Positions 5,976-23,597 of a stretch of 64,000 bases of DNA are shown piece after piece (the stretch's first letter is position 1; every line of letters starts with the position of its first letter). The notes beneath the pieces are model-generated. The model saw only the letters and a program-made list of their open reading frames with translations. It did not search any database and was not told the DNA's origin. Location: the sequence record PV390658.1; one strand, given 5' to 3'. Source of the stretch: Escherichia phage vB_EcoM_P54. Made by a program: the position numbers and the translations under genes.

Positions 5976-5999
5976 GAAAAGAGCCTCCGAAGAGGCTCC
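5976..5999 (-). terminator. rho-independent terminator upstream of nrdA
   Basis: GAGCCTC-cgaa-GAGGCTC hairpin then UUUU on the minus strand. Confidence 0.6.
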
Positions 6000-6004
6000 C
6001 TAGT

Positions 6005-7395: not shown

Positions 7396-7633
7396 TCGGA
7401 CTCCTTAAAAATCTGTTAACTTTTAGCTCTCGTGTTTCAATATATTCCAGATGCTCACGTAACTCTTGACGTTTAAGCATTAGGTGCTGCATTTGAGATT
7501 CAACAGCTTCAACTTCTTTAATTATTGACTCTCTGGCATTTGCAAGAATGCGCTCAAGTTCTTCAATCTTGCTGTCAACCTTTGCTACATGACTCACAGC
7601 TTTACTTTTGTTAAACATTTTATTCTCTCTCAA
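7388..7633 (-). CDS. hypothetical coiled-coil protein (81 aa)
   Basis: ORF track; heptad-like charged sequence. Confidence 0.4.
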   Translation of the reverse strand: MRENKMFNKSKAVSHVAKVDSKIEELERILANARESIIKEVEAVESQMQHLMLKRQELREHLEYIETRELKVNRFLRSPNV

Positions 7634-7639
7634 TAGTTA

Positions 7640-8137
7640 TCAAGCACAATTTGCTTTCATTACCTTATGGATTCTTTTTTCAGCATCTTCATAAGTTTCT
7701 TTAGTGATAAACTTAATTGCTGCAATATTGGCATTGTAGAAGAGTCTGAGCTTAGAGTCAATCCTTTTTGTCATTACATCGAATTTATGTTGAAGGTTTG
7801 CTTCGCCATAAACTAGACCGCCTTTTGTGTAGTAGGTTTGAATAATGTAAAAGTCAAAAAATTCTTTTCCAAAGCTCTCAATATCTTTTTTAATATACTC
7901 AGAAGAAGTCTCATAAGTCATCCAATCACTCTCCTTAGTGACTACCTTCTTCCGAGTCTTACCAGCAACTTTTCTTTTGGTCACGCTATTAAGCTGTTTC
8001 TTTCCAATATAATATTGTCCGGTTTTCTTACAGTATACTAAATAGACAAAACCAAAATGTTTAGCGGGGTCAACTTCCCCGCATAAAGATATCCAATGAC
8101 CATAGGTAGGACAATTGCCAAATCCTTTAATCTTCAT
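7640..8137 (-). CDS. GIY-YIG family endonuclease-like protein (possible homing endonuclease)
   Basis: 165 aa; FGFVYLVYCKKTGQYYIGKK fits the GIY-(10-11)-YIG spacing. Confidence 0.5.
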   Translation of the reverse strand: MKIKGFGNCPTYGHWISLCGEVDPAKHFGFVYLVYCKKTGQYYIGKKQLNSVTKRKVAGKTRKKVVTKESDWMTYETSSEYIKKDIESFGKEFFDFYIIQTYYTKGGLVYGEANLQHKFDVMTKRIDSKLRLFYNANIAAIKFITKETYEDAEKRIHKVMKANCA

Positions 8138-9167
8138 TCATACACGGCTCCCAATTATATTTCTTAAAAGAGAAATTATCTTTTGGATTTCTCTCTTGAT
8201 ATGCTATCCAGAAATGCTGTTCCATTAACTCTAATGGCGTTTTGGTAACAGTCTGTCCATCCCATGACACATAGGTATAAGAGTCTTTTTTAGCATAGAG
8301 TTCATAGATAGCATCAAGGCACTCTTTATATGTCTCTTTACCATCTAAAGCATTCATTACAGCTACTTTGCCAGCACCTTTAAGGCCGAAGTAGTTGTCT
8401 GCATTATCTCCAGCAACAGCCTGATAACACAAGAATTTAAAACCTACACCAACTGTTTTTGCAGCTTTTGGTTTTGATTTGATAGGACAATCCCAGATAT
8501 CACCAACATTATTGTCAGCAATAAAAATTAGTGGTGACTTTTCATAAGTCATATCAATACAATAAGTCCCTTCAGCTTGTCGAAGGTCTTTGTCAATACT
8601 CATAAGAGCAGCTTTTTTACCCATCTTTTCAGCTTTAGCAATTACGATTGAATCAGCTTCGAATCCACCCTTTAAGAGTTTGAACTCTGGTCTGGATAAA
8701 AGATATTCACGACAAGCGACTAAATGTGTTGGTGTGACAGCATCTTTACGGTTACCTTGATATTGGTGCTCAAGACCTTTAACGTCTTTATGTTTATGTA
8801 CACCTTTCTCTGTTAAGTAACCTACCCAAGTTCTTTCTTTGCCAACAATCTTAAGCCATTCCTGAAGAACCTGCTGAGTAGCCATGATAGCTTCTTTTTC
8901 ACTCTTAGCTTCTTTCCAAGTCTGTCTTTCCCATTCATCTTCATCAAATGCTAGGCCAAGCTCTTCTACAAGGGTTCTCTGGTCTGCTAACCATCTTGCA
9001 GCATCTTTTGCGTTATCAAATGATTCAGATTCTTCTGCTGTGAGCTTATTGACATATTTATATTTTGCTTTCTCAACTACACAAGCACCTTTATAGGCAA
9101 TACTGTCAGAGTCAATAAAGACATGTGTAACTGAATCGGGAAGTTTTTTTAATGTGTACTTCTCCAT
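8127..9167 (-). CDS. 5'-3' exonuclease, FEN-1/RNase H-like
   Basis: 346 aa; N-terminal VFIDSDSIAYKGAC and later SIDKDLRQ acidic clusters resemble the T4 RNase H / T7 gp6 flap-nuclease pattern; GGAGAG RBS. Confidence 0.6.
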   Translation of the reverse strand: MEKYTLKKLPDSVTHVFIDSDSIAYKGACVVEKAKYKYVNKLTAEESESFDNAKDAARWLADQRTLVEELGLAFDEDEWERQTWKEAKSEKEAIMATQQVLQEWLKIVGKERTWVGYLTEKGVHKHKDVKGLEHQYQGNRKDAVTPTHLVACREYLLSRPEFKLLKGGFEADSIVIAKAEKMGKKAALMSIDKDLRQAEGTYCIDMTYEKSPLIFIADNNVGDIWDCPIKSKPKAAKTVGVGFKFLCYQAVAGDNADNYFGLKGAGKVAVMNALDGKETYKECLDAIYELYAKKDSYTYVSWDGQTVTKTPLELMEQHFWIAYQERNPKDNFSFKKYNWEPCMNED

Positions 9168-9229
9168 TGTGACTCTCCATATGAAAAAGCCCCATACTAA
9201 GTACAGGGCTTTAAAGTAACTTTTAGAGA

Positions 9230-10087
9230 TTAGTCTTCTGTATCGAAGTCTTCATCTTCTTCGTCATCTGGGTCTGGCAAGTCTTCATCGTCACCATCAT
9301 CAGAATCATTCGAAGGTTTGTGGTCTTTTGCGTCTTCTTCAGTGATTTCACCATTATCTTCAACACCATCAAGACCAAGCATAGCCAGTTCGTCTTCATC
9401 CAGTTCAGGTTCACCGTTAGCACCGTTACCACCAGTGTAAGGTACAAGGGTGTCAATGATAAACTGTTCCTGAATAGGTTTTGTCAGAACATTGTTCTCA
9501 AAAGTGTAGAAGTGAGTAGAAAGAATCACACTACCAAAAGAACCGTTACCAACTGCAATATCTGGATGAATTACATCATAGTTCTTGTCATCTTCATGTT
9601 TATCGGATGCTTGAGCTTTGATTTTCTTCATCGGCTGTTTAACAGCTACACGTTTACCATTTACTTCTTCAATCAGCATTACAGGGAATGACTGTTTAGC
9701 TGTCCACACAGCACCATCTTTATAAGCTGCTGCACGACTTACTTTCAAGATGTAGTAAGTGTCTGCTTCAAATGGTGGTTTGCAACCAAACTTCTCTTCG
9801 AAGTCATCTGCATCAACCGCTTCAGTAGTAACTTTATCCCAACCTTCTGGGTTTTTCTTAGACTTAGTGAACTCTTTAAACAGTTTGTTACCATCTTCTG
9901 CCAGAATTGAAACACTGTAGTTGCAGTCTTTGCCTGGGAATTTCTTATCAATGGATTTACCTTTTCCCGGACGTGGTGAAGTGTTCAGGTAATAAAACCA
10001 GACATCTTTCAGAAGGTAACGCAGAGTTTGACGTTCAGTACCATTGTACTTCTCTACCGGAGCTTTCATTTTAACAACTTTAGACAT
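9230..10087 (-). CDS. putative ssDNA-binding protein with acidic C-terminal tail (T7 gp2.5-like)
   Basis: 285 aa; C-terminal ~60 aa strongly acidic ending DEDFDTED with a penultimate aromatic, as in T7 gp2.5; lies in the replication module. Assignment rests on the tail and context. Confidence 0.45.
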   Translation of the reverse strand: MSKVVKMKAPVEKYNGTERQTLRYLLKDVWFYYLNTSPRPGKGKSIDKKFPGKDCNYSVSILAEDGNKLFKEFTKSKKNPEGWDKVTTEAVDADDFEEKFGCKPPFEADTYYILKVSRAAAYKDGAVWTAKQSFPVMLIEEVNGKRVAVKQPMKKIKAQASDKHEDDKNYDVIHPDIAVGNGSFGSVILSTHFYTFENNVLTKPIQEQFIIDTLVPYTGGNGANGEPELDEDELAMLGLDGVEDNGEITEEDAKDHKPSNDSDDGDDEDLPDPDDEEDEDFDTED

Positions 10088-10561
10088 TATTTAAACCTCT
10101 ATCTCAATTTATGAAGAGTACCAATTCTAATTTGTTGATACTCTATTGTCAAACATTAATTACTGGAAGTTGTGCTTATCTTTAGAAGCTGCTTTACGTG
10201 CAGTTTTTCCAGTTCTTACACGCTTCTCTTCATAGTATTTTGCTGGTTTTCCAGCAGTGGCTTTTAAGGAATCCCCAAAAACTTTTTCAAATGCTTTAGA
10301 GTGTTTCATGATATTCTCCGATATACTTGATATTCAAACACATTTTCTTTAATTATAAAGAGCCAACCAATATTATGTCGAGGTATAGTAATAGTGACTG
10401 TTATCATACTGTGATGGAACTTTTCTTCTACCTCAACACCTCCATCACATTTCATGTAGAGCATTCTATAGAACCTATCAACCTTTGTCAAACACTCTTC
10501 CTGAAATTCATTTAAACTTTTTTCTTCAAAGAATGGTATGAACCCCTCTCTTTTATAACTA

Positions 10562-12547
10562 TCACTCAGTTTCAAACGGGCAGTCATCTGCATCCTCACT
10601 TAATACAGGTGGAATCGTTGAGCTTTGACGCTGTTCTTCAGTATAGACTTCACCAGTCTCACGGTCAAACACTTCATCCTCATAATGAGGTAAAGAGTCA
10701 TCGTAATGGTCTTCAGCTTCACCAATACCAAACTGTTGACGAATATTTTCTGCTGCACCATCAATGTCAACACCACATCCAGAGGCTTTGATAAGACGTC
10801 CTGTATCTGGATTGTACCAAGTATGACCAGCAATACCTGTTGACTTACCATGACGACGACACTTAGTTAACTTGATTTTTGTCAAGTTTTTCTTAACAGG
10901 GTCTGGGTCAACCTTGTTACGCATTAACAGAATGTTGTTCATGGAAATCTGGAAATACGCACCAGAACCTTTAATGTCCTCTTCAGAGATATCTCCACCT
11001 TCAGAGTTAGCTTTCTGACCACCTGCACTCTTACGAACGTGACATACGTTTACCTGCGCATACTGGTAGCGTTTGCAACGACGCAATAGTTCAGACAAAA
11101 CTTCCTCTTCATCCGTATCGGAACGTGACAGAGCCAATGTAATAGGGTCAAGAATAATAATCTTACAGTCTAAACTGTTAACAAGATAGTCAACAAACTC
11201 CAGCAAATTATCTTGGTCAATTGCCCCTTGATGGTCTACGATATGGATACGACGACCTTTAGATAGCTCTGCGTGTGCTTCCTTCAATTCATCCCAATCA
11301 CGTTCGTCATAAGGAATCTCAGAAATCTGCTTGCTTAGATGAATTGCACAGAGCATCTCCATCAACTCTTCATAGGTATCTTCTACAGGAATTACACCGA
11401 TATTATAATCAGTTTCCTTCCAAGCAGTGTAAATCATTTCACGGGTATATGCTGATTTACCTACTGAAGATGGTGCTGCCAGAGTTGTAATCTCACCTAA
11501 ACCGTAACCACCATAAGTCAACCTGTTCAAATCCCCGAAAGATTCTGGGAAAGGAATCAATGGAATCTGACCACGATTCTTCATTGCCTCAAAACCATCT
11601 GCAAAGTTCTTGATACCAGCAGGGCAGTAACGAGGTGCGTTGTAGATACGCTGCTTAAATCCTTCCAGAACTGTATCTTTCTCTTTATAGAACTTTGTCC
11701 ACCATTCGTTAAGGTCTTTTACACCTTCTGGATACTGGAATAAACGAACCTTCTCAATAGGTAGGATACCAGCAGCCTCTTTGGTAGCTTTAGCACCTGC
11801 TTCATCATTATCAAAGCACAAGTAAATCTCATCAAATGATGTGATGTACTGATAGTTGTCTTTGATAGACTTAATGTTTGCACCTGATGGAACAGATACG
11901 TGGCAGTAATTCTTACGACGAGACTTATCTTTAATCGCCAGAGAAGTCATGTAGATTGCTGTAGCGCATTCCATCTCACCTTCCCAGATGAATAAACGGT
12001 TACCACCTTCTGGAGCAATCCATGAACCGAACATTGCCAGTTCACCTTTAATATCTCCGACACCACCTGAAAAGTCTTTTAGCTTACCACGTAGGTGTTC
12101 TTTTGGATGGTCTTCTGGGTAACGGTGACGAACACGGTAGCCAACATGTTCTAGCTTGCCATCTTCATTACGTTTGTAAGTTGGATAGAAATGTGCATCA
12201 ATTTCACCATCACTATCAATGTCAACCTTGATACCTAAACGTTCAAGGACTTTTGCAGGAATCTTCCTATCTTTCAAGTCCATTGCTTCTAGGTTTTCTT
12301 TTACATCATCTAAATCCATTCCACGGAAAGTACGGTTTTTATTATCTGAACCAGTAGAATAAGTGCTCACGATTTGTCCTTTATCAAAATCCCACTCTGG
12401 GAAACCTTTGTTACAGCTAAAGCAAGTCATCGAATAAGAATCATCGTCATGATGGTAGATTGAACCAGCATCTGATGAACCACAACGTGGACATGCACAA
12501 TGACCAATAAACTGACCAGCCTCTTTCAATTTACGACCTTTAGACAT
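10562..12547 (-). CDS. bifunctional DNA primase-helicase (T7 gp4-like)
   Basis: N-terminal Cys4 zinc ribbon (CACPRCGSSD...CFSCNKG), central TOPRIM-like region, C-terminal DnaB-type P-loop SSVGKSAY; start refined to ATG 12547 with AGAGGTG RBS. Confidence 0.85.
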   Translation of the reverse strand: MSKGRKLKEAGQFIGHCACPRCGSSDAGSIYHHDDDSYSMTCFSCNKGFPEWDFDKGQIVSTYSTGSDNKNRTFRGMDLDDVKENLEAMDLKDRKIPAKVLERLGIKVDIDSDGEIDAHFYPTYKRNEDGKLEHVGYRVRHRYPEDHPKEHLRGKLKDFSGGVGDIKGELAMFGSWIAPEGGNRLFIWEGEMECATAIYMTSLAIKDKSRRKNYCHVSVPSGANIKSIKDNYQYITSFDEIYLCFDNDEAGAKATKEAAGILPIEKVRLFQYPEGVKDLNEWWTKFYKEKDTVLEGFKQRIYNAPRYCPAGIKNFADGFEAMKNRGQIPLIPFPESFGDLNRLTYGGYGLGEITTLAAPSSVGKSAYTREMIYTAWKETDYNIGVIPVEDTYEELMEMLCAIHLSKQISEIPYDERDWDELKEAHAELSKGRRIHIVDHQGAIDQDNLLEFVDYLVNSLDCKIIILDPITLALSRSDTDEEEVLSELLRRCKRYQYAQVNVCHVRKSAGGQKANSEGGDISEEDIKGSGAYFQISMNNILLMRNKVDPDPVKKNLTKIKLTKCRRHGKSTGIAGHTWYNPDTGRLIKASGCGVDIDGAAENIRQQFGIGEAEDHYDDSLPHYEDEVFDRETGEVYTEEQRQSSTIPPVLSEDADDCPFETE

Positions 12548-12740
12548 TAGCACCTCTTCGTTGTAGTTCTGCCTTCAATCCATTTTCAATCTTGTCCAGT
12601 TCATGAATCTCATCTGCAATCTCTTTCCTTCGTGATTCAACTCTCTTAAGACGTTCAATCATTACCTCATTGGAAAGAGATGAGAGTTCCACTAAACGAT
12701 GGTCAATAACCTTAAAATTATCTTTTACTCTCATCTTCAT
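12540..12740 (-). CDS. hypothetical coiled-coil protein (66 aa)
   Basis: ORF track only. Confidence 0.3.
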   Translation of the reverse strand: MKMRVKDNFKVIDHRLVELSSLSNEVMIERLKRVESRRKEIADEIHELDKIENGLKAELQRRGANV

Positions 12741-12748
12741 TCTCTCTT

Positions 12749-13492
12749 TTAAATTTTCAGGATAGCTCTTAGCTTGCTTTCAAGGTCTGCAAGAGTACCA
12801 TTATTATGGATAATGTCACGCGCATATTTAGTAGAAATCCCATTTTCTGAAACATGTGACGAAACCTTATCCACATTGTCTCTTTTTACTTCAATAATCT
12901 GGTGTGCAAATCTACTCAGCCACTCAGCTTCAGAGTCAAACCTTAAGTCACTGATTAAAACAACACCCTCTTGATTCATAAGTGAACAAGATTCAAAGAA
13001 GCGAGCCATTCGTTTTTCAAGGTCTTTAGCCCAGAATTTGTCACCCATAACTTTACGGATTACTTCAGTGCCCCAAATCTGTTGAATTTGTCTTGATGAG
13101 AATTTATACTTCTTGCTAAATCCCAGACGTGTCAATAGAGTTGGCTTAGCAACCTTCTTAAGTTCCATGATTAATCGTCCGGTTAACTCCGACATAAGCT
13201 TAAAGTCCATATGGTAACGTTCATCTCTGAAGGTGAACTCCATAGCTTCCGTAACTTTACCCATAAGTTCAGAGTATGATAAATCAAAAACCTGTGGAGT
13301 CTCTTTAGTTTCACCGTACAGGTCATTCCACGTCAAGTCAAATATCTTTGATGCAGATAGCTTGAGATTGTCTGCATAGGCCATTACTGCAACATTGTAG
13401 CCATACTCATCTTCTAGGATATTCTTAACAATAGAGCATGAGGTATCTTTTCCAGAACGTGCCTTTCCAGTAAATGCGATAATATTACTCAT
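12749..13492 (-). CDS. deoxynucleoside monophosphate kinase
   Basis: 247 aa; N-terminal IAFTGKARSGKDT P-loop resembles T4 gp1 (SGVKRSGKDT, from memory); GGGAGG RBS. Confidence 0.65.
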   Translation of the reverse strand: MSNIIAFTGKARSGKDTSCSIVKNILEDEYGYNVAVMAYADNLKLSASKIFDLTWNDLYGETKETPQVFDLSYSELMGKVTEAMEFTFRDERYHMDFKLMSELTGRLIMELKKVAKPTLLTRLGFSKKYKFSSRQIQQIWGTEVIRKVMGDKFWAKDLEKRMARFFESCSLMNQEGVVLISDLRFDSEAEWLSRFAHQIIEVKRDNVDKVSSHVSENGISTKYARDIIHNNGTLADLESKLRAILKI

Positions 13493-13553
13493 TTTGCCTC
13501 CCTTAATTACTAAAAAGCCCCCAACTAAGGAGGCTTGTAAGATTTATAAAGAC

Positions 13554-14366
13554 TTAGTGCAGTTGGTCACTAGTAATTTGTGAGTGCTCTTTTTCAGCCA
13601 TAGCTGAGATTTGCTTCACAAAATCATCGCCGAAGTTAATGCGAAGCTTCTCTTCAATGATTGAAGCACCGATGCTTACCAAAACATCATTGATTGCTTG
13701 CATACTCACACCACCAGTCATGCTCTCAATGAACTCAATGCTTGTACCCATCATCTGTGAAAGTTGGATTAGTGCAACGATATTCATCATCGTAGAGATA
13801 GCTGGAATCATCAATGCAACTTTCACCTGTAGTGGCTCTACATCAGCTACAGAGTCATCTTTCACAGCTTCTGCTAAAGAGTCTTTAGTTTGCTGGATAA
13901 TCTCTTTGATTCGTGGGTTTAACTCTTCTACACCCCAATCAAGTTTTTCATATCGTGACAGCTTCTCTTCCATTCGCTTCTCAAGAGCAGCCATAACAGC
14001 ACTCGTTGACGAAATTAACAGGTCAACTAGCTCATTATTATCTAAGAGCAGTAGCGAGTCTTTTTCTTCAGGTGTCATGGCAATATAGTCATTTTTCTGC
14101 ATCTCATAAAAAATGAACTCTGCAAGAGCATCAACACCTACAACAATAGATGCTAAGGCAAGCTTTTTGTCACACAGCATCATATTAACCTGTTCTGCAA
14201 AAGCACCGTTATCAGACTTGTCTTTAGGCAAGTTATAGCTTGCAGGCATAAACTGTTCTGTGTAGTTGTTTCCACGAAGAATCATAGCCATGCTTTCTAC
14301 GGCATTGATTAAGAATGCTTCGTCAATACCTTTTTCTTCAAGCATCTGGTCTACAGTAGTGTTCAT
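13554..14366 (-). CDS. hypothetical protein (270 aa)
   Basis: ORF track; no recognisable motif. Confidence 0.5.
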   Translation of the reverse strand: MNTTVDQMLEEKGIDEAFLINAVESMAMILRGNNYTEQFMPASYNLPKDKSDNGAFAEQVNMMLCDKKLALASIVVGVDALAEFIFYEMQKNDYIAMTPEEKDSLLLLDNNELVDLLISSTSAVMAALEKRMEEKLSRYEKLDWGVEELNPRIKEIIQQTKDSLAEAVKDDSVADVEPLQVKVALMIPAISTMMNIVALIQLSQMMGTSIEFIESMTGGVSMQAINDVLVSIGASIIEEKLRINFGDDFVKQISAMAEKEHSQITSDQLH

Positions 14367-14367
14367 A

Positions 14368-14790
14368 TTATTTCTCTCTCAGTTGGTTAAGTTTCTTTCT
14401 AGAACATTTTAAGTTTTCTGATGAAGAAAAGTCAAGTGTCTTTTCAGAACGTGGATAGTAATGTCTATCCCAAGAAGTTTCAACATCGTTAATCAGTGAC
14501 GCTAGATTACACAGGTCTGTACCACTTTGCAACCTCTTTTTAAGAGAATCTAGTAAAGCAACTGTGTCTTTAGCTTTACGTCTCGCTGTAGCAACATCTT
14601 TCATATGCTCAAATACAGAGCATTTTAAGTCATCTTCATAGTTTTCAGACAACTCTATTTCATGTTGTATATCAACCATTCTCCTGTGATGGTGAGCATA
14701 TTCCCGTTGAGCAGCAATGTCAAGTTCTTCCAACTTCTGCAAAGCTCTAACAAAGTCAGCTATGTCTGGGTGAACAAACATTTTCTGCAT
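14368..14790 (-). CDS. hypothetical protein (140 aa)
   Basis: ORF track; first gene of the leftward operon leaving the 14.8-15.0 kb divergent region. Confidence 0.45.
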   Translation of the reverse strand: MQKMFVHPDIADFVRALQKLEELDIAAQREYAHHHRRMVDIQHEIELSENYEDDLKCSVFEHMKDVATARRKAKDTVALLDSLKKRLQSGTDLCNLASLINDVETSWDRHYYPRSEKTLDFSSSENLKCSRKKLNQLREK

Positions 14791-14963
14791 GTAAGCCTCT
14801 TTTAAGTAACTATTAAGTTTTAATCTTTTATCTTAACGTATTCTATACGTTATACTTTAAAGCTTTTTAAAAGCTATTAAATAATCTTTTAAGAGTTTTA
14901 AAGTATCTGTATAGTTAAACTGTTAAGTAACCTTTTAAGTAAAAACCCACTTCGCAAAGATTA

Positions 14964-14990
14964 ACACCTTGTCAAGTACATTGTCAACTT
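14964..14990. promoter_or_regulatory. conserved 25 nt box ACACCTTGTCAAGTNCNTTGTCAAC in the divergent region
   Basis: Near-identical to the box at 57651-57675; contains two TTGACA hexamers on the minus strand. Confidence 0.45.
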
Positions 14991-15047
14991 GCTTTTTATA
15001 ATTTTTTGCAGTAATGTATGAGGTTAATGATTTTAGAGGGAGTAAAA

Positions 15048-17747
15048 ATGGAAAACGTAGATTTTAAAAACTTACATTTAGTTGGTGATACAGAAACTGA
15101 TGGTTTACTCCTTGAGTTCACTAAGGTGCACGTAATGGCTTTCGCAGACTATAAATCTGACGACGAAGAGCCACCTGTATGGGTCTTTACAGATGAACCT
15201 ATCCTCGGTCACAAGTATACCAAGTACATTAAGGGTGGTTTGCGTGAAGGTATTGAGTTTGCGTTAAAGGCAAAACGACTTTGCATCCATAATGGTTTAG
15301 GATATGACTGGTGGGTTTTCAATCACATTGCACCTGATTTGTGGAACTTTGATAATCCAAAGTGTAAGCCGTGGAGTAATTTCTTTCAGGATTCTCTTAT
15401 CCAGTCTCGTGTTCAATGGATGGATAGACCAACTCCAAAAGGCTATAAAGGTGCTCATGGCTTGGCAGCATGGGGTGCTCGTGTTGGTGTCCGTAAACCA
15501 GAGATTGAACATTGGGGTGTGTGGAATGCAGAAATCTTCACTCGTGTTGTGGAAGATATCCGTATTAACGCCAAAACTAAACGTGCACTGGATAATGAAT
15601 ATCTCAAGCTGAAGAAGTGTGGCGTAGATACTTATGAAACCTACATGCGAGCTAAAGAAACATCTTTCTGGATGAGTCAACAAGCTATCAATGGTTGGAA
15701 AGCTGATAAAGAGCTTATGGAGTTCCATGTAAAGGAACTTGACAAGTTGACTAATGAGCTTGCTTCAGAAGTTGAACCACATCTTCCTCCAACTATTAAG
15801 ACCAAAGGTAAAGTCACTGGAGAAGAATTTGCAAAAGCTTGGAATGAGTATGTTGAAGCATTCGGTCATGCAGATGGACTGAAGAGAATTACTAAGTACC
15901 CTAAGACAAAGTATCGTCAGCAGGTACGTAATGGTGAGATGCAGACATATGAAATCAAGCCATTTGGTAAACCAACTACCAAGATTTTTAACATTGAAAA
16001 GCGGAATTGCTATACACCAACCAACTCTGTAACTGGTGAAGAGTACAAGGAAGGCTTTGTAGCAATGAAGGATGCTCGTGCAATTTGCAATGAGTTGAAT
16101 GCAAAGATTGGTAAGAAGTGCAAAGACTGGAAGCCAGTAAAAACAGTTAAAACTGTGAAGTACTATAACAGCCATGTTGTTAACCACTTTGAGCTTGAGT
16201 CAAGTCGCTACACAGGTTTGATTGATGCACCATATACACCAATTGAGTTCGAAGTTTCTCGTATGACTCAGGTAGCAGTTGTTAAAGACTACTTGAAATC
16301 AGTTGGTTGGATTCCAGATGACTGGAACTATAAGAAAGACTCTGATGGTCGTCCTGTTAAGGTTTGTCGCTTCAAAGACAACAAAAAGATGATTACAAAA
16401 CATCCTAAGTGGGATGAGATGGTGGAACGGTGTGGTTTGAGTTATGTTGAACACGAAGGTGTCCAGTACATTGAACATAACTGGTCTGTGAAGAAGTACA
16501 CAGATTTGCTTGAGCCTTGCTTAATCCGTACTTCACCAAAACTTACTGAATCATCTTATGATACAATTGAAGGTGAGCTTGGACAGAAGATTGCGAAATA
16601 CTATACTTTGATGCACCGACGCAGAACTATTGAGAACTCAAAGGATGATGAAAAAGGTTGGTTGAACCAGATTCGTCCTGACGGTCGCCTTAGTGCTGGT
16701 GCAATGGTGTTTGGTACTTCAACTGGACGTATGACACAGTATGGTATTGTAAACGTACCGTCTGGTGCTGCTGTCTATGGGGAACCAATGAGGGCAGTGT
16801 GGATTTGTGAAGAAGGTACTAACGTTGTCTCTGTAGACATGAACTCAGCCCAGCTAGTTCTTCTTTGTAACTTTATGGGTGACAAAGACTTCACTAAAGC
16901 GGTAACGCAAGGTAAAGAAGAGATTGAGTTTATTCGTCAAGAAGATGGACGCTATTACTGCAAACATTTTGATGAGTACCTCAACCCAGAGATTGATAAG
17001 TACCTTCGCTATGACTCTGAGAATGACCTTTACGTTGTCTATTCAGGGACTGATGCACACACACTGAACAGTATTTACTTTAGCTTGAATGATGAGCAGG
17101 ATATCTTGACTTGTCGAGCTACTCAGGATGAGAACCTTCTCCATGAGATTAGCAAAGGTCGTAAGAAAGCTAAGAATGGTATCTATGCACTGCTGTTCGG
17201 TGCAGGTGATGAGAAGTTTGCTAAGACAATTAAGGCTGCAACTACTCAGGAAGGTGCACTGACTAAGCAGACTTACTTTATCCGTTTGCCTAAGATTAAG
17301 AAGCTGCTAGATGACTTGGAAGCTGACTACAAAGCAACTAAGAAGGCACTTGAAGAGGTGTTTGGTAAGACCGCTGCAATCTCTAAAGGGGGTTTTGTAA
17401 AGGTTGCTGGAGCTTGGTTGTGGTGTAAATCTCCACACAAACTGTTGAACTATCTTTTGATGGGTTCAGAGGCTCAGATTCAAAATGAGGCGATTAACCT
17501 TGCTTGTCGTCGTATGATTGACGAAGGTTTGATGAAGTTGAATGGTCGTCAACCAGCTATTGGTGCTCGTTTGCTCTGCGCATATCACGACGAGACGAGT
17601 TGGGAATGTCCAGAGAGTATGACGGCAGATGTGAAAGCAGTTACTGACTGGTATTATGGGCAAGCTTCTAAAAACTTAGGTCTTAAGAAAGAAACGCTTG
17701 TTACAGGCACTGGTAAGGTTGGCAAAAGCTGGCTTGAAGTACACTAA
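15048..17747 (+). CDS. DNA polymerase, family A, with 3'-5' exonuclease domain
   Basis: Exo I motif VGDTETDGL; motif B-like KNGIYALLFGAG; motif C-like YHDETSWECPE; start set at ATG 15048 (MENVDF) behind a GAGGGAG RBS rather than track start 15018. Confidence 0.9.
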   Translation: MENVDFKNLHLVGDTETDGLLLEFTKVHVMAFADYKSDDEEPPVWVFTDEPILGHKYTKYIKGGLREGIEFALKAKRLCIHNGLGYDWWVFNHIAPDLWNFDNPKCKPWSNFFQDSLIQSRVQWMDRPTPKGYKGAHGLAAWGARVGVRKPEIEHWGVWNAEIFTRVVEDIRINAKTKRALDNEYLKLKKCGVDTYETYMRAKETSFWMSQQAINGWKADKELMEFHVKELDKLTNELASEVEPHLPPTIKTKGKVTGEEFAKAWNEYVEAFGHADGLKRITKYPKTKYRQQVRNGEMQTYEIKPFGKPTTKIFNIEKRNCYTPTNSVTGEEYKEGFVAMKDARAICNELNAKIGKKCKDWKPVKTVKTVKYYNSHVVNHFELESSRYTGLIDAPYTPIEFEVSRMTQVAVVKDYLKSVGWIPDDWNYKKDSDGRPVKVCRFKDNKKMITKHPKWDEMVERCGLSYVEHEGVQYIEHNWSVKKYTDLLEPCLIRTSPKLTESSYDTIEGELGQKIAKYYTLMHRRRTIENSKDDEKGWLNQIRPDGRLSAGAMVFGTSTGRMTQYGIVNVPSGAAVYGEPMRAVWICEEGTNVVSVDMNSAQLVLLCNFMGDKDFTKAVTQGKEEIEFIRQEDGRYYCKHFDEYLNPEIDKYLRYDSENDLYVVYSGTDAHTLNSIYFSLNDEQDILTCRATQDENLLHEISKGRKKAKNGIYALLFGAGDEKFAKTIKAATTQEGALTKQTYFIRLPKIKKLLDDLEADYKATKKALEEVFGKTAAISKGGFVKVAGAWLWCKSPHKLLNYLLMGSEAQIQNEAINLACRRMIDEGLMKLNGRQPAIGARLLCAYHDETSWECPESMTADVKAVTDWYYGQASKNLGLKKETLVTGTGKVGKSWLEVH

Positions 17748-17763
17748 TTAGTATTGACAAGGT

Positions 17764-17797
17764 GCTCATGGAAGAGTACCTTATACTATATCTTGTA
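17764..17797 (+). promoter_or_regulatory. putative promoter with TTGACAAGGTG box upstream of the small-gene cluster
   Basis: TTGACAAGGTG at 17764-17774; TATACT 22 nt downstream. Confidence 0.4.
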
Positions 17798-17808
17798 TAG
17801 GAGGTCAC

Positions 17809-18027
17809 ATGACACTTTCAGAGATTGAAGTTCAGTTGCAATGTGCAGGTTATTCTCAAAAAGAGATTGAAGGGATGTTTATTGTTCTTTGCAGTAGCTG
17901 TAGGAATTTGAAGGTAAACCCTGAAGTTCTACGTAGAGTAGATATCTTTATTGCTGGAGATAAAATCGCAAAAGATAAGACAGGCTACTTAAAAGGTGAG
18001 CGTGTAAATATTGAGAGTTTACTATGA
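17809..18027 (+). CDS. small protein, paralog A of a tandem pair (72 aa)
   Basis: GGAGG RBS; shares MTL start and C-terminus DGKIAKDKTGYLKGERVNIESLL with paralog B. Confidence 0.5.
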   Translation: MTLSEIEVQLQCAGYSQKEIEGMFIVLCSSCRNLKVNPEVLRRVDIFIAGDKIAKDKTGYLKGERVNIESLL

Positions 18028-18233
18028 GCCACCGTGGAAGAACCCATGCAGCGATGATGAAAGGTGCTTCAAAGGAAACTATCAAGAACCGTAAGCAGAA
18101 GTTGTTTGAGAGAATGAACAGGTTAATTGACAATTCATCTCTTTCAGGTTCTGAGAAGGTTTTCTTGAAAGGTAATCTGAAAAGCATTGCACAAGAACTT
18201 ATTGATATTGAATATTGGAGACATCAAAAATGA
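18024..18233 (+). CDS. small basic protein (69 aa) between the paralogs
   Basis: ORF track; start overlaps the stop of the upstream gene. Confidence 0.4.
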   Translation: MSHRGRTHAAMMKGASKETIKNRKQKLFERMNRLIDNSSLSGSEKVFLKGNLKSIAQELIDIEYWRHQK

Positions 18234-18448
18234 CACTTGCAGACGTTATTCAGCAACTTCACGATAATTGCTACACTCCTGAGTTGATTCAAGAGATGCT
18301 TATTGTGGTGATGCCTAGTAAGTTCTTAAAAGGTTTTAATCGTGAGGCTTTAAAGGTCGCACATATCCTTATCGTTGACGGTAAGATTGCAAGAGACCGT
18401 ACAGGTGTTCTTAAGGGTGAACGCATTGATATCTTGGAATTGTTATGA
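18230..18448 (+). CDS. small protein, paralog B of a tandem pair (72 aa)
   Basis: Start refined to ATG 18230 (MTLADVIQQL) with GGAGA RBS; C-terminus DGKIARDRTGVLKGERIDILELL. Confidence 0.5.
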   Translation: MTLADVIQQLHDNCYTPELIQEMLIVVMPSKFLKGFNREALKVAHILIVDGKIARDRTGVLKGERIDILELL

Positions 18449-18605
18449 ATAGGTTATATAGTCTCTGGGGAAGGATGGGTAAAGACTCTGATTGGAACCT
18501 ACTAAAAACAAACGTAAAAAGTAATGAGATAGCGTACTACAAAATTCATTACTACAAAACTTTCAGAGAGCTTGAGTATCGTGAACAACAGACAGGAGAA
18601 GTATT

Positions 18606-18842
18606 ATGTGGAAATCAGTAATTGTGCTTGGTGTTATTTTTCTAGCTGGCTGCAACCCTTCTTATGAAGATAAAAATGCTTCTTATAGCCTCCCACCAGA
18701 GATGCAAGATTGCAAAGTCTATAAGTTGCATGGTGATGCCATAAGTAGAGATATTGTTGTTGTCAGATGTCCAAACTCTCAAACAACAACATCTTATAGT
18801 TATGGAAAAAATGGTCAATCACACACTACGGTTATTGAGTGA
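18606..18842 (+). CDS. putative lipoprotein (78 aa)
   Basis: Signal peptide MWKSVIVLGVIFLAGC with lipobox LAGC. Confidence 0.5.
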   Translation: MWKSVIVLGVIFLAGCNPSYEDKNASYSLPPEMQDCKVYKLHGDAISRDIVVVRCPNSQTTTSYSYGKNGQSHTTVIE

Positions 18843-18852
18843 GGTTTTCACG

Positions 18853-19059
18853 ATGGAAGTCCTAGTAAACTATATCTATTGTTATGATGTTGTTCACTCC
18901 ACTACAACCGTAGCTCAACGTAACCCAATTGTCCCACGAGAAGGTGAATTGGTTCGCATTGAGGGTTGGACTTACACTGTGGAAAGTATCATTCATAAGT
19001 TTGATGTTGCTGGTGATGTTCAAGTTATCGACGTAGAGATTGGTGGTAAGAGAAAATGA
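18853..19059 (+). CDS. hypothetical protein (~68 aa)
   Basis: ORF track 18754..19059 overlaps the lipoprotein gene; internal ATG 18853 has a GAGG RBS. Confidence 0.4.
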   Translation: MEVLVNYIYCYDVVHSTTTVAQRNPIVPREGELVRIEGWTYTVESIIHKFDVAGDVQVIDVEIGGKRK

Positions 19060-19215
19060 AACCTAAGCAAACAATGACAGATGCAACCTTCACAGTACAC
19101 AGCTTCGAAAGGTTGCACATCAAAGATACAAAAGATACACCAAAATGCGTTGTACATTTTATTAAAAGGAGTAGTAACATGTCCTATATGAAATCTGACA
19201 AAGGCAATAGCACAA

Positions 19216-19407
19216 ATGAATAAAGAAGACAAGCATAAAAATGCTGTACGGACTCCTGATGGAAAGGTTCAATCCTTCATCCTGACAGTTGGTGGAAAGC
19301 CGTTTCGTTGCCACTGCGGAGCAAACTGTTTTCATAAACCAGATAAAAATGACTTAGAGCTTTACGCATGTAATGCTTGTAATACTTGGTATCACTCAGA
19401 GGAATAA
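19216..19407 (+). CDS. small Cys-rich zinc-ribbon-like protein (63 aa)
   Basis: CHCGANCFH ... CNACNTW cysteine/histidine pairs. Confidence 0.4.
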   Translation: MNKEDKHKNAVRTPDGKVQSFILTVGGKPFRCHCGANCFHKPDKNDLELYACNACNTWYHSEE

Positions 19408-19408
19408 A

Positions 19409-20512
19409 ATGACAATACTGTACAAACAAAATAAAGACGGCTCTTTTAACGTCTGGTCATGCGTTGCTGTAGGTGACAAAGTTATTACAACCTACGGTAA
19501 AGAAAATGGCAAGATGATGTTTGAAGAGTACACAGCAGAACCTAAAAACATCGGTAAAAAGAATGAGCGTAACGCTGAACAGCAAGCTCTCTTTGAAGTT
19601 GCTGCTAAGTATAAAAAGCAGGTTGACCGTAAAGGCTACGCTTACACAAAAGAGTCTGCACAGAATACTGAGAAGGTAGGTGTACAGCTTGCTCATGATG
19701 CTGCAAAGGTTAGTCATGCAAAGTATCTGAAGTTCCCTGCTGATGCTCAACCGAAACTTGATGGTGTCCGTTGTAGGATTTCAAGGCACTTGAGTATTGG
19801 CAGTGTATTTACAGCATATTCTCGTGAGAATACTGTTTACAAAATCCCTACTGAACTAATACCTGACATTATGGCAATGTTAAGGCTCCACAAAGATGTT
19901 GATGAATTTGATGGAGAGATTTATGCTCATGGGTGGGACTTAGAAGATATCGTCTCCATGATTAAAAATGAAGACAATCCTGACAGACACTTGCTCAAGT
20001 TTTACTGGTACGATATCTGTGACAGTACTAAGACGTGGCCTGAGCGTAGAGATATTATTGAGACTTCACCATTGAATGACTTTAGAGATGGCTGTAAAGT
20101 TGTTCCTGTTAAGTCTCGTCGTGTAAATTCTTGGGAAGAGTTTGATGAAGCCCATGATAAGTGGGTTGAAGCTCAGTTTGAAGGTGCAATGTACCGTTCA
20201 ATCTCTGAAGACTCCTTCTATGAGTGTTGTCACCGTTCATACTTCTTGATTAAGCACAAGAAGATGCACACTGAAGAGTTTAAAGTGACTGGTGTAAAGA
20301 CTGATAAGCGTGGTCATGGCAAGTTCGTTGTAGAGACTCTTCCTAACGTCTTTGTAGATGTCTCATGGAAGACTACTCATGAGAAGAAACAGTATCTTGC
20401 TGAGCATCCTGAAGAGTTTATCGGGAAACCTTTAACGGTTCAGTTCCAGAAGATGACTCGTAAGGGGTCTTTACAGTTCCCTGTTGGGCTGGTTATACGA
20501 GATTATGAATAA
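19409..20512 (+). CDS. ATP-dependent DNA ligase
   Basis: Adenylation motif I KLDGVR; size and layout like T7-type ligases; start set at ATG 19409 behind GAGGA. Confidence 0.8.
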   Translation: MTILYKQNKDGSFNVWSCVAVGDKVITTYGKENGKMMFEEYTAEPKNIGKKNERNAEQQALFEVAAKYKKQVDRKGYAYTKESAQNTEKVGVQLAHDAAKVSHAKYLKFPADAQPKLDGVRCRISRHLSIGSVFTAYSRENTVYKIPTELIPDIMAMLRLHKDVDEFDGEIYAHGWDLEDIVSMIKNEDNPDRHLLKFYWYDICDSTKTWPERRDIIETSPLNDFRDGCKVVPVKSRRVNSWEEFDEAHDKWVEAQFEGAMYRSISEDSFYECCHRSYFLIKHKKMHTEEFKVTGVKTDKRGHGKFVVETLPNVFVDVSWKTTHEKKQYLAEHPEEFIGKPLTVQFQKMTRKGSLQFPVGLVIRDYE

Positions 20513-20518
20513 AAGTTG

Positions 20519-20546
20519 TTGACATAGAAAATTTGGTGAGTATACT
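20519..20546 (+). promoter_or_regulatory. sigma70-like promoter (TTGACA-16-TATACT) embedded in an 8 bp inverted repeat
   Basis: TTGACA at 20519-20524, TATACT at 20541-20546; GGTGAGTA (20535-20542) pairs with TACTCACC (20566-20573). Confidence 0.5.
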
Positions 20547-20619
20547 GAGCAGCATAAACCAACGGGTACTCACCAGCATCACTTAAGAGTCTTCTAAGAA
20601 GGTTTTTAAGTGATGCTCG

Positions 20620-20689
20620 GTCAGGTATGGTGCGGTGGTGTAAGGTGGTGTCAGGTGTAGTATGGTGCGGTGATGTGAGGTATGGGTAG
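20620..20689 (+). repeat. pentanucleotide-periodic tract (GGTNN x14)
   Basis: Reads GGTCA GGTAT GGTGC GGTGG TGTAA GGTGG TGTCA GGTGT AGTAT GGTGC GGTGA TGTGA GGTAT GGGTA. Confidence 0.75.
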
Positions 20690-20767
20690 TTAGTCTCAGC
20701 TACATTAAAATGAGACTTACCTTTTTAAAAGGTCTTTAAACAGGGTATTTTAATAAGGTAGTGTCAG

Positions 20768-20829
20768 GTTAGGTTAGGTGCGTTTTGGTAGGGTAGGGTA
20801 AGGTTCGGTAAGGTATGGGTGGATGGTAG
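20768..20829 (+). repeat. pentanucleotide-periodic tract (GGTNN x12)
   Basis: Reads GGTTA GGTTA GGTGC GTTTT GGTAG GGTAG GGTAA GGTTC GGTAA GGTAT GGGTG GATGG. Confidence 0.75.
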
Positions 20830-20908
20830 TAGCCACGTTAAAAATCTACCAAGTTTCTAAAGAGTCTTCTGTTGAGGGTTCTTTACAAACAACTTAACAA
20901 TCAACTAA

Positions 20909-21514
<606 letters not shown>

Positions 21515-21516
21515 TT

Positions 21517-21957
21517 ATGAATACAAAAGCATTAGCAGCAAAGTTTAGTTACGGTGACACTGTATCACATTCTGAGATGGATACCTTCTTAGGTATTGCG
21601 AAGCCAACTTATCAAGGTGACATTGTTAAGTACGAAGATGAAATGAAGGCTTATGCACTTACACGTCTAAACCGACTTGAGAAGTTTATTGAGAAGCTCC
21701 TTAAAGAAGAGAAGATTTATCTGGTTGCTTCAATGGGTGTTGGTTATCGTGTGGTTGAGCCTAAGCATCAAGCAACTATTGCAAAACGCAAAATGTCTGG
21801 TAAGATTGGTCGTGCTTTAAAGCAAGCCACTCAAGCAATTGAGAATGTGAACACTATGGCACTTAGCCATCAAGAACGTTCACGACTGATTGAACAGCAA
21901 AACCATTTAGCTGCTATGAAAGCTAACATTAACAAGCAACGTAGAAAACCTTTCTAA
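21517..21957 (+). CDS. hypothetical protein (146 aa), cassette gene 2
   Basis: ORF track; followed by a terminator hairpin at 21969-21992. Confidence 0.5.
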   Translation: MNTKALAAKFSYGDTVSHSEMDTFLGIAKPTYQGDIVKYEDEMKAYALTRLNRLEKFIEKLLKEEKIYLVASMGVGYRVVEPKHQATIAKRKMSGKIGRALKQATQAIENVNTMALSHQERSRLIEQQNHLAAMKANINKQRRKPF

Positions 21958-21968
21958 GTTGACTAGGT

Positions 21969-21992
21969 AGCCTCTTCGGAGGCTCCTTTTTA
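21969..21992 (+). terminator. rho-independent terminator after cassette gene 2
   Basis: AGCCTC-ttcg-GAGGCT hairpin followed by CCTTTTT. Confidence 0.65.
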
Positions 21993-22020
21993 AAAGGTCT
22001 TTAAGAGGGTCTTTTAATAA

Positions 22021-22090
22021 GGCTCGGCAATGTTCGGCATGGTCTGGTATAGTCCGGTGCTGTTCGGCGTGGTAAGGTGAGGTATGGGTA
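22021..22090 (+). repeat. pentanucleotide-periodic tract (GGYNN x14)
   Basis: Reads GGCTC GGCAA TGTTC GGCAT GGTCT GGTAT AGTCC GGTGC TGTTC GGCGT GGTAA GGTGA GGTAT GGGTA. Confidence 0.75.
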
Positions 22091-22158
22091 GTTAATCGGA
22101 GCTACATTAAAATTCGATTACATCACTTAAGAGTCTTCTAAGAGGATTTTTAAGTGTT

Positions 22159-22218
22159 GTGAGGCGAGGTACGGTCGGGTATGGCTATGTCTGGTATGGT
22201 TTGGTATGGAAGGATGGC
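22159..22218 (+). repeat. pentanucleotide-periodic tract (GYNNG x12)
   Basis: Reads GTGAG GCGAG GTACG GTCGG GTATG GCTAT GTCTG GTATG GTTTG GTATG GAAGG ATGGC. Confidence 0.7.
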
Positions 22219-22260
22219 AGCAGCCTTATAAAAAATCTGCCAAATAAGCTATAAAATCTG

Positions 22261-22295
22261 TTGACAAGTCAGGTGTTATAGCTTATTTTTATACT
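22261..22295 (+). promoter_or_regulatory. putative promoter with TTGACAAG box flanked by an 11 bp inverted repeat
   Basis: TTGACA 22261-22266; candidate -10 TATTTT (17 nt spacer) or TATACT (23 nt spacer); ATAAGCTATAA / TTATAGCTTAT brackets the -35. Confidence 0.4.
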
Positions 22296-22333
22296 CAATG
22301 TAATACAAAATTTAATATAACTTTGAGGTCATT

Positions 22334-22717
22334 ATGAAAAAGATTTTATTAGCTGCTGCAATGGTTATGGCAATGAATTTACCAGTCAATGCAACAGAAC
22401 TCCCAAATGTGGACTTATCAGGTGTTCCAGAAGACACTTGCCAGATTGTTAAAGGTGTTGCTCTAGCTAATGGTGAGCTACTTAAACCAATCTCTGAAGA
22501 ATCTTTGACAGAGATGACTGATAAGGTAACTGACTATCAGTATCGTGTTCTTGCAGAGTATTTCCTGCAATCTGCAAACATTAAAGAGAAACACCGTGAT
22601 GATATTGATGTACAGGCTATGCTCAACCACCGTATCCAGTTTAAAGAAGACTTGATGCAAAAAGCTATGTATGGTGTTGAGTATTTCTTAGAAAACAGAA
22701 GCTGCACAGGTATTTGA
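22334..22717 (+). CDS. putative secreted/periplasmic protein (127 aa)
   Basis: N-terminal signal-peptide-like MKKILLAAAMVMAMNLPVNA; GAGGT RBS. Confidence 0.5.
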   Translation: MKKILLAAAMVMAMNLPVNATELPNVDLSGVPEDTCQIVKGVALANGELLKPISEESLTEMTDKVTDYQYRVLAEYFLQSANIKEKHRDDIDVQAMLNHRIQFKEDLMQKAMYGVEYFLENRSCTGI

Positions 22718-22718
22718 T

Positions 22719-23223: not shown

Positions 23224-23224
23224 T

Positions 23225-23584: not shown

Positions 23585-23597
23585 TAGGTGATGAATT

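Follow-up and report, generated by a model that had tools for sequence, protein, structure and literature searches.

Strong sigma-70 promoters with an UP element, an extended -10 element or both are familiar from E. coli rrnB P1, the T5 early promoters and T7 A1. In the MotA-dependent middle promoters of T4, a MotA box, approximately TTTGCTTTA, is centred at -30 and replaces the -35 element. T4-type phages reportedly carry promoter-early stem-loop (PeSL) cassettes, which Arbiol et al. are said to have described in 2010. Another known arrangement is the C-box operator of restriction-modification controller proteins, e.g. PvuII, in which GACT-N3-AGTC-N4-GACT-N3-AGTC overlaps the -35 element (PMC2175313). 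For phage Felix O1, Whichard et al. 2010 (PMC3185647) predicted the promoter P41, TTGACA-N15-TATAGG, at 21515-21541. Genome papers on Felix O1-like phages describe as unknown both which promoters are used in the divergent regions and how transcription is timed.

The window, by which we mean the whole 64,000-nt (64-kb) stretch of DNA analysed here, belongs by its sequence to a Felixounavirus, a Felix O1/wV8-like myovirus. For bases 14000-16500 there are 256 matching phage records, with identities of 80-99% and Shigella phage Z31 (98.3%) among the best, and the gene order is the same as in Z31. The genes lie in blocks on the minus and plus strands, and this layout makes regions A and B, each present in about 250 records, the two divergent junctions of the window:

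1-14790, minus strand: replication and nucleotide-metabolism genes
14791-15017: divergent intergenic region A, the Felix O1 96/97 intergenic region
15018-25817, plus strand: genes for DNA polymerase, ligase, an HTH regulator, DHFR and thymidylate synthase
25854-57524, minus strand: morphogenesis genes, an array of 24 tRNAs, and genes for a Ro-like protein and a DUF5681 protein
57525-57774: divergent intergenic region B, the Felix O1 40/41 intergenic region
57775 onward, plus strand: a gene block that contains the lysin gene

Across region A, the DNA polymerase gene faces an operon of which the primase/helicase gene is a member. The start codon of the polymerase is probably the conserved ATG at 15048, after GAGGGAG, and not 15018.

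A search of the whole window finds the 25-nt sequence ACACCTTGTCAAGTMCWTTGTCAAC exactly at 14964-14988 and 57651-57675, both on the plus strand, with no further match in the window at up to 3 mismatches; shuffled sequences are expected to give 0. The original prediction had placed such a box in both divergent intergenic regions, and this is confirmed, with the end given as 14990 being 2 nt too long. Its core, TTGACAAGGTG, is exact at 14965-14975 (minus), 57652-57662 (minus) and 17754-17764 (plus). A plus-strand recurrence had been placed at 17764, which is the end of the motif and not its start; the copy reported with an insertion at 22261 also exists, as TTGACA-AGTC-AGGTG, with the insertion measuring 4 nt. 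Motif enrichment had been proposed as a check, and in the window the core gives 8 matches at up to one mismatch against 1.82 +/- 1.40 expected, a number reached by none of 100 shuffles. In Z31 one further exact copy, the fourth, closely follows the stop codon of nrdD, some 300 nt past the left end of the window. In the complete Z31 genome, all 4 exact copies are intergenic and run in the same direction as the local genes.

Regions A and B are collinearly alike over about 105 nt, with a local alignment score of 46 (shuffles give 19.8 +/- 2.7, with a maximum of 31). They have in common, in this order, ATATCTGT, AACCTTTTAAGTAA, about 22 nt, the box and a T-run. Judging by this alignment, the two regions are paralogous or have been kept alike over that length.

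On the minus strand, the box has the form GTTGACA-N6-TTGACAAGGTGT with an A-tract on its 5' side. In region A, where it reads GTTGACA-ATGTAC-TTGACA-AGGTGT, the parts are the following:

14964-14988, minus strand: box A, reading GTTGACAATGTACTTGACAAGGTGT; a direct repeat of two TTGACA hexamers 12 bp apart, then TG
14988-15011, minus strand: A-rich, UP-element-like tract, CTGCAAAAAATTATAAAAAGCAAG, 5' of the distal hexamer, within which AAAAAGCAAG is invariant
14982-14987, minus strand: distal TTGACA, predicted -35 of PL(A), a leftward promoter, with no variation among 20 distinct relatives
14970-14975, minus strand: proximal TTGACA, in the PL(A) spacer at about -24 to -19; invariant
14958-14966, minus strand: predicted extended -10 of PL(A), TGt plus TAATCT, with a predicted start at about 14951-14952
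14989-15017, plus strand: PR(A), the rightward predicted promoter for the DNA polymerase gene, TTGCTT-N17-TAATGT

TAATCT or TAGTCT is found 18 nt downstream of the distal hexamer. As for the proximal hexamer, no usable -10 is present 16-18 nt past it, the hexamers there being GAAGTG, AAGTGG and AGTGGG. The sequence TG(T/G)TA(A/G)TCT is kept across Felixouna-, Susp- and Mooglevirus, followed by 7 variable nucleotides and then by AGTGGGTTTT, which is invariant. On the opposite strand, TTGCTT and TA..GT of PR(A) are conserved (TAGGGT in Mooglevirus), and a TATAAT in its spacer is not. The AAGCAA of the A-tract is the reverse complement of this rightward -35. In GenBank record MZ726792 (phage ASO1B), a minus-strand promoter feature is annotated over box A.

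The corresponding parts of region B, where the minus strand of the box reads GTTGACA-AAGGAC-TTGACA-AGGTGT, are:

57651-57675, minus strand: box B, reading GTTGACAAAGGACTTGACAAGGTGT
57675-57690, minus strand: UP-element-like A-tract, GTTAAAAAAGTTG, with the A-run kept and the flanks varying
57669-57674, minus strand: distal TTGACA, predicted -35 of the leftward promoter PL(B); invariant in 15 distinct relatives
57657-57662, minus strand: proximal TTGACA, in the PL(B) spacer; invariant
57646-57653, minus strand: predicted -10 of PL(B), TG plus TAGGCT, 17 nt from the distal hexamer, with a predicted start at about 57638
57700-57728, plus strand: PR(B), a rightward predicted promoter, TTGACT-N17-TACCAT; invariant

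The -10 variants in region B are TAGGCT, TAGCCT, TAAGTT and TAGTGT, all of which retain TA...T. Past the -10, 7-8 nt are variable, and the relatives then agree completely from ACTTAGAAGAT to the start codon. No usable -10 occurs 17-18 nt past the proximal hexamer, where TACTTA is found (CACTTA in other genera). The A-tract cores 5' of the distal hexamers are AAAAAGCAAG in A and TTAAAAAAGTTG in B. In terms of an extended -10, the TG is canonical (TGn) only in region A; in region B it abuts TAGGCT, and Felix O1 has TA at that place. The plus-strand TTGTCA was tried as a rightward -35 and rejected, fitting only region B (TTGTCA-N18-TGcAATAGT) and failing in region A.

The published coordinates of P41 map onto distal hexamer B. 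P41 and PL(B) have the same locus and the same distal hexamer, and the difference is in the -10, which was set at N15 for P41. For the 96-97 region, our region A, the Felix O1 promoter paper states that it saw no promoter of this kind, and it does not remark on a second hexamer, on the paralogy of A and B or on conservation across genera (PMC3185647).

Conservation footprints were built from 28 viral contigs for region B and 29 for region A, together with the window, and comprise 15 and 20 distinct sequences, respectively, from Felixouna-, Susp- and Mooglevirus. In region B, no variation is seen in the A-run, the distal TTGACA or (C/A)TTGACAA. The 5-6 bases between the hexamers are free (AAGGA, AAGTA, TTCCT, AGCCT, AGGGG, AATGA), and so are the two bases after TTGACAA (GG, CG, GA, GC). 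The AGGTG extension accordingly reads GGTG, CGTG, GATG or GCTG in relatives, and GGTA (AGGTA) in Felix O1, whose sequence is TTGACAAGGTA. In region A, AAAAAGCAAG-TTGACAA is invariant, 4 bases are free, and CTTGACA(A/G)GGTG and (T/G)TA(A/G)TCT are kept. The footprints show, then, that conservation does not extend over the 25-mer as a whole. The pattern is what one would expect of a -35/-10 promoter with its transcript beginning 7-9 nt past the -10, which puts the predicted starts at about 14951 and 57638.

The equivalent regions of distant Ounavirinae were located by means of the DNA polymerase and flanking genes. Pectobacterium phage Wc4 has a single leftward TTGACA-N17-TAGGCT, and Kolesnikvirus-like contigs have a single-hexamer TTGACA-N17/18-TACATT. 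Contig 063805 carries TTGACT-N17-TATCCT in region A and TTGACG-N17-TAAGCT in region B. In Hafnia phage Zyzzx, whose polymerase is 54% identical, each of the two divergent regions carries a pair of perfect hexamers, TTGACAgaacTTGACA and TTGACAaacacTTGACA, and such pairs occur nowhere else in its 86-kb genome. In this phage TAnnnT is found at 17 nt from the distal hexamer only (TATTGT, TACTCT).

Compared with sigma-70 promoters, each box contains two perfect -35 hexamers, invariant in relatives. The key -10 positions (T-12, A-11 and T-7) are found 16-18 bp from the distal hexamer in both regions, and not from the proximal one. The -10 elements had earlier been described as weak or mis-spaced. 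This holds when they are measured from the proximal hexamer, which is the wrong partner for the -10, but not when measured from the distal one, where the distance to TAnnnT is 18 nt for A and 17 nt for B. A consensus scan (at least 9/12 overall and at least 4/6 per hexamer) lists neither box promoter, because their -10s match at 3/6 positions only; neighbouring phage promoters score 10-11/12.

In Z31, 16 of 21 intergenic co-oriented TTGACA sites have a TAnnnT at 16-18 nt, versus 9 of 81 elsewhere (15/19 versus 10/83 if the two hexamers of region A are counted as elsewhere instead). The intergenic exceptions are the proximal members of tandem pairs and two sites that are probably not promoters. 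The total number of TTGACA in the window is not enriched (69, with 67 expected), so the signal is positional and not compositional. Other intergenic TTGACA sites of this phage have a similar A-tract upstream and a good -10:

10152, minus strand: TTGACA with -10 TAGAAT
20519, plus strand: TTGACA with -10 TATACT
54234, minus strand: TTGACA with -10 TATAGT
55637, minus strand: TTGACA with -10 TAATAT
55546 and 57140, both minus strand: TTGACA with -10 TAAAGT

Genomes of Felix O1 and VpaE1 yield phage from naked DNA in E. coli cell-free extract, so the host polymerase must start the programme. A literature search found no mapped transcription starts or RNA-seq data for any Felixounavirus, and no phage RNA polymerase or polymerase modifier is reported in the literature on these phages; according to published statements, neither a polymerase nor any apparent modifier of it is encoded. 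Read by eye, the box and the leader show no match to sigma-54, sigma-32 or LexA-like sites. A Pho box was also rejected, since it needs an 11-bp spacing and a conserved -10, and Susp- and Mooglevirus do not keep the TATAAT that lies 10 nt past box A.

We read the box as the core of two paralogous leftward promoters for host sigma-70 polymerase, one from each divergent control region, and give this reading a probability of roughly 0.65. What is observed is the anatomy of the sequence, its conservation and the link between TTGACA and TAnnnT across the genome; from this we infer that RNA polymerase uses the distal hexamer and where the transcripts start. The sigma-70 holoenzyme would bind the A-tract, which is placed like a proximal UP subsite, then the distal TTGACA as the -35 and, after a 17-18 bp spacer, a weak or extended TAnnnT -10 (TGtTAATCT in A, TG-TAGGCT in B). 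In its second half, CTTGACAAGGTG, the box consists of a second perfect -35 hexamer, placed in the spacer, and the TG just 5' of the -10. Transcription would start about 7 nt past the -10, near 14951 and 57638, and the transcripts would be headed by long, AT-rich, highly conserved leaders. PL(A) would drive the replication and nucleotide-metabolism operon, and PL(B), equivalent to P41, the DUF5681 gene, the Ro-like gene, the tRNA array and the morphogenesis operon. The original prediction is thereby upheld in taking the box as promoter DNA at both divergent regions, with its core recurring at other co-oriented intergenic promoter-like sites.

As for timing, published RT-PCR has ORFs 41, 42, 96, 97 and 98 peaking at 25 min, and the text of the same paper describes ORF 96 as early. 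Given these maxima at 25 min, the genes adjoining the boxes may not necessarily be "early".

Like rrnB P1, the T5 early promoters and T7 A1, the predicted promoters have TTGACA, a spacer of 17-18 bp, TA...T, an A-tract at about -46 to -41 and, in region A, TGn. They differ from them in having a second perfect TTGACA in the spacer and a weak -10 (3/6). A MotA box is absent from boxes A and B, which have a perfect -35 instead.

Perfect tandem TTGACA, with hexamers 3-8 nt apart, is found in the window only in boxes A and B (0.24 expected; two are reached in 8 of 300 shuffles). Z31 has a further intergenic pair, also co-oriented, at 1375/1362, with a -10 (TAACTT, 17 nt) after the distal hexamer only. 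The distance between hexamers is 10-13 bp across the cases. In all 5 of them, 4-7 nt separate the proximal hexamer from the -10 downstream, which puts this hexamer at about -24 to -19. The proximal hexamer was rejected as a normal -35, having no TAnnnT at 16-18 nt in A or B, nor in the two Hafnia regions. A plain promoter would not account for the invariance of the proximal hexamer, nor for the confinement of perfect tandem pairs to the two divergent regions in the window and in the Hafnia phage.

The literature search found no published description of the doubled hexamer. It is a new feature in a promoter design that is otherwise ordinary and was already predicted at one of the two sites. By comparison of the genomes, it marks both divergent regions here and, independently, in the Hafnia phage lineage. 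It is thus a lineage trait of both control regions, kept in two lineages despite fully diverged surroundings.

For the proximal hexamer we favour, as a guess, either another register in which sigma region 4 could dock or a weak second promoter that overlaps the first. A second register would move the start 12 nt downstream. In region B this would coincide with a second ACTTAnAAG, whose distance from the first is exactly 12 nt. Region A, however, lacks a -10 for such a register. In A, B and Hafnia region B, TTACTTAAAAG is found 27-28 nt from the proximal hexamer. A more ambitious reading, which we regard as unlikely, is that the doubled -35 is a selected device specific to the two master divergent regions of Felix O1-like phages. 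Together with TTACTTAAAAG at its fixed distance and the invariant, AT-rich leader built of repeats, it might act as a two-register promoter or as a phage- or host-factor switch that times the infection.

The core of the box is also found at sites with one hexamer only, of which the window contains:

17754-17787, plus strand: single-hexamer site after the polymerase gene, TTGACA, with -10 candidates TACCTT (N17) and TATACT (N22)
22261-22295, plus strand: single-hexamer site, TTGACA-AGTC-AGGTGT, with -10 candidates TATTTT (N17) and TATACT (N23)

At 17754, AAGGTGCTC and GAGTACCTT form a stem-loop (-12.9 kcal/mol, z = -3.2), and the entire 60-nt spacer is invariant in relatives. The 22261 site is invariant up to TATACT and variable just after. 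It lies just upstream of an operon that contains the gene for an HTH_3 protein (22894-23223; Pfam E = 5e-11; PHROG "transcriptional regulator"). At the nrdD site, AAGGTGGTGTGAG...CTTACATCACCTT, with a T-run behind it, forms a stem-loop (-24.4 kcal/mol, z = -5.9), and AAGGTA...TACCTT in relatives is a compensatory change. This stem-loop is the terminator of nrdD, with the -10 of the next promoter (TAGGCT, N18) in its loop. A further case is found at 14327 of Z31, TTGACA-AGGGGCTTCAAAGCCCCT-TAGAAT. Within boxes A and B the fold is not significant (z = -1.05 and +0.99).

In Z31, AGG occurs within 0-4 nt after TTGACA at 7 of 19 intergenic sites versus 3 of 83 others, with the region A hexamers among the 83. 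Because of the stems at 17754, nrdD and Z31 14327, this excess is largely that of the G-rich 5' arms of stem-loops in promoter spacers. AGGTGT has 49 copies in the genome and is not concentrated in intergenic DNA. AGGTG as a specialised extended -35 was rejected: it varies in region B and in Felix O1, and is part of an RNA stem at two sites.

The sites at 17754, nrdD, 55637 and Z31 14327 resemble the T4-type PeSL cassettes in combining, within a compact intergenic unit, a sigma-70 promoter and a stem-loop or terminator. A second likeness is that short identical stretches recur between cassettes. Boxes A and B differ from the cassettes, having no stem-loop. In terms of C-box systems, the likeness is at 22261, where a small Xre-family HTH gene lies downstream of a promoter with short repeats at the -35. 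The repeats here are direct, and not two inverted pairs, and the C-box pattern is absent from boxes A and B and from the 22261 site. By analogy, autoregulation by the HTH_3 protein is possible at 22261.

This protein, of Xre/Cro type, or a host factor could also be imagined to bind the proximal CTTGACAAGGTG, or the pair of repeats, as an operator. Binding would overlap the spacer and switch both master promoters, as well as the 17754, 22261 and nrdD sites, during infection. The position of the HTH_3 gene, in the operon just downstream of the 22261 site, is consistent with this, and so is a proximal hexamer that is invariant yet has no -10. The same can be said of the exact 11-mer, which is found four times in the full genome of the relative, always intergenic and co-oriented, and the transcription timing of this phage is an acknowledged open question in the literature. 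We nevertheless hold an operator to be distinctly unlikely. The Hafnia phage has the doubled hexamers, but no homologue of the HTH_3 protein was detected in its whole genome (tblastn, E up to 10). Furthermore, the part outside the hexamer varies in region B, the distance between hexamers ranges over 10-13 bp, and there is no dyad symmetry beyond CTTGNCAAG, which is present in any TTGACAAG. At 2 of the 4 sites, AAGGTG is explained by the stem-loop.

The original prediction had favoured a specialised promoter class over plain sigma-70, with TTGACAAGGTG as an extended -35 or activator site, which in such a class would be read by a modified RNA polymerase. Every distal or single hexamer, however, has a correctly spaced -10, in boxes A and B included, and no polymerase-modifying factor is reported in the literature. 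The enrichment of AGG right after intergenic TTGACA would suit such a class. Against that stand the AGGTG that is not conserved in region B or Felix O1 and co-varies as an RNA stem at nrdD, the AAGGTG that is a stem-loop arm at 17754 and nrdD, and an AGGTGT that is common in the genome. TTGACA with an A-tract is also found in phage promoters with good -10s. There remain, in its favour, a near-consensus TATACT at an abnormal 22-23 nt at 17754 and 22261, with the variability at 22261 beginning after TATACT, and TTACTTAAAAG at its fixed 27-28 nt from the proximal hexamer in A, B and Hafnia region B. We consider this claim very unlikely to be right; on the present evidence the box would be of plain sigma-70 design and not a new promoter class. 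A replication origin is highly improbable. It would combine the direct repeats with an extremely AT-rich and palindrome-rich leader, and would be primed by transcription or use the hexamers as iteron-like protein sites; region A does lie between the DNA polymerase gene and the primase/helicase operon. Its leader has 21% GC versus 39%, its repeats are about one helical turn apart, and it has long imperfect palindromes. The repeats are only two, however, and equal the -35 consensus of all other phage promoters. The sense-strand bias of the leader units and the few compensatory pairs favour a role at the RNA level. The cumulative GC skew simply tracks gene orientation, and is for this reason confounded as an origin marker.

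Felix O1-like phages are widely used in Salmonella and E. coli typing, in biocontrol and in cell-free phage engineering. For engineering, both regions are probably key early control points of the genome. Testable predicted starts can be assigned at about 14951 and 57638 leftward, and at about 15024 and 57735 rightward. What deserves experimental work is the second hexamer and the leaders, all of them conserved.

The leaders of the sigma-70 promoters proposed here are:

14791-14952, minus strand: PL(A) leader, about 160 nt, with about 11 sense-strand CTWWANAG units
57525-57638, minus strand: PL(B) leader, about 113 nt, folding as a long hairpin

Both are nearly invariant across the three genera. 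The PL(A) leader includes the AT-richest 150 nt of the window. For both leaders the predicted fold is a long hairpin (z = -2.2 and -2.95), and one or two base pairs show compensatory changes. In Rfam 15, 14700-15100 has no match at E up to 1, and 57450-57850 has chance-level matches only. More than the box, the leaders look like the specialised part of the control regions. Both leaders are made up of CTWWANAG units, which on the plus strand read CTNTWWAG; of 62 such copies in the 64 kb, 7 are in region A (227 nt) and 3 in region B. The CTWWANAG unit pattern is found after the leftward promoter in every Ounavirinae lineage examined.

Both leftward operons begin with long 5' leaders, transcribed after the predicted sigma-70 promoters of the two divergent intergenic regions:
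14791-14952, minus strand, leader A, long 5' leader of a leftward operon
57525-57638, minus strand, leader B, long 5' leader of a leftward operon

These leaders are nearly invariant across Felixounavirus, Suspvirus and Mooglevirus. Both are composed of sense-strand CTWWANAG units such as CTTAAAAG, CTTAACAG and CTATACAG, with about 11 in leader A and 7 in leader B, and both fold as extended hairpins with one or two compensatory pairs. No other 150-nt stretch of the window is as AT-rich as leader A (21% GC). The unit pattern also follows the leftward promoter in more distant phages (Wc4, Kolesnikvirus-like, Hafnia-type and 063805-type). RNA-level control, an array of protein sites and an origin are possible roles for the leaders.

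A third co-oriented tandem hexamer pair is found outside the window, in the early small-ORF region of the relative Z31:
Z31 1362-1380, minus strand, TTGACA-N7-TTGACA
An A-tract precedes the pair, and TAACTT follows the distal hexamer at a distance of 17 nt. As for the sites with one hexamer (TTGACAAGG), both carry a near-consensus TATACT:
17782-17787, plus strand, TATACT
22290-22295, plus strand, TATACT
This element lies 22-23 nt past the -35, placing it 5-6 nt further along than a weak -10 of normal spacing. At the 22261 site, variability among relatives starts directly after it.

For the DNA polymerase, the start of the longest ORF (15018), also the one annotated in Z31, falls within the rightward promoter predicted here. 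The start that is conserved is ATG 15048, with GAGGGAG ahead of the codon (region 15018-15050). Downstream of this gene, relatives Z31 and ASO1B have an HNH homing endonuclease gene that is absent from the window:
L001 6957-7469 and Z31 41853-42386, HNH locus, corresponding to window 17748-17808
The HNH gene is inserted precisely at the junction of the polymerase stop codon with the TTGACAAGGTG promoter, and its own stop codon abuts the promoter hexamer.

Two intergenic regions have repeat modules in common:
20513-20911, plus strand
21958-22333, plus strand
The modules include a hairpin CATCACTTAAGAGTCTTCTAAGA..TTTTTAAGTG, four G/T-rich, GGT-periodic tracts (about 70 nt), the hairpin GGGTAGTTAGTCTCAGCTACATTAAAATGAGACT with its paralogue, and a 38-nt repeat, CCTTTTTAAAAGGTCTTTAA..AGGGT.TTTTAATAAGG. 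One difference between the two copies is compensatory (TGGTAG..CTACCA versus TGGCAG..CTGCCA). The modules carry no annotation in relatives; they are candidates for non-coding RNAs or for processing sites.

In terms of RNA-related genes, a Ro-like protein and a tRNA-like element were found:
55656-57071, minus strand, Ro/TROVE-like "RNA-binding protein" of 471 aa, adjoining the tRNA array
53805-53883, minus strand, tRNA-like element with truncated D-arm (Rfam tRNA, 31.7 bits)
Homologues of the protein occur, among others, in mycobacteriophages and jumbo Vibrio phages. ARAGORN does not call the element, which follows a strong predicted promoter (54234) in a gap with few ORFs and could serve the Ro protein as a Y-RNA-like partner.

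Lastly, terminator stem-loops fused with predicted promoters are seen in the phage:
55614-55645, minus strand, -35 within the stem (55637)
Z31 14327 and 23745-23806, minus strand, the sites after rIIA and after nrdD
In the latter two, the stem fills the promoter spacer, with the -10 in its loop.
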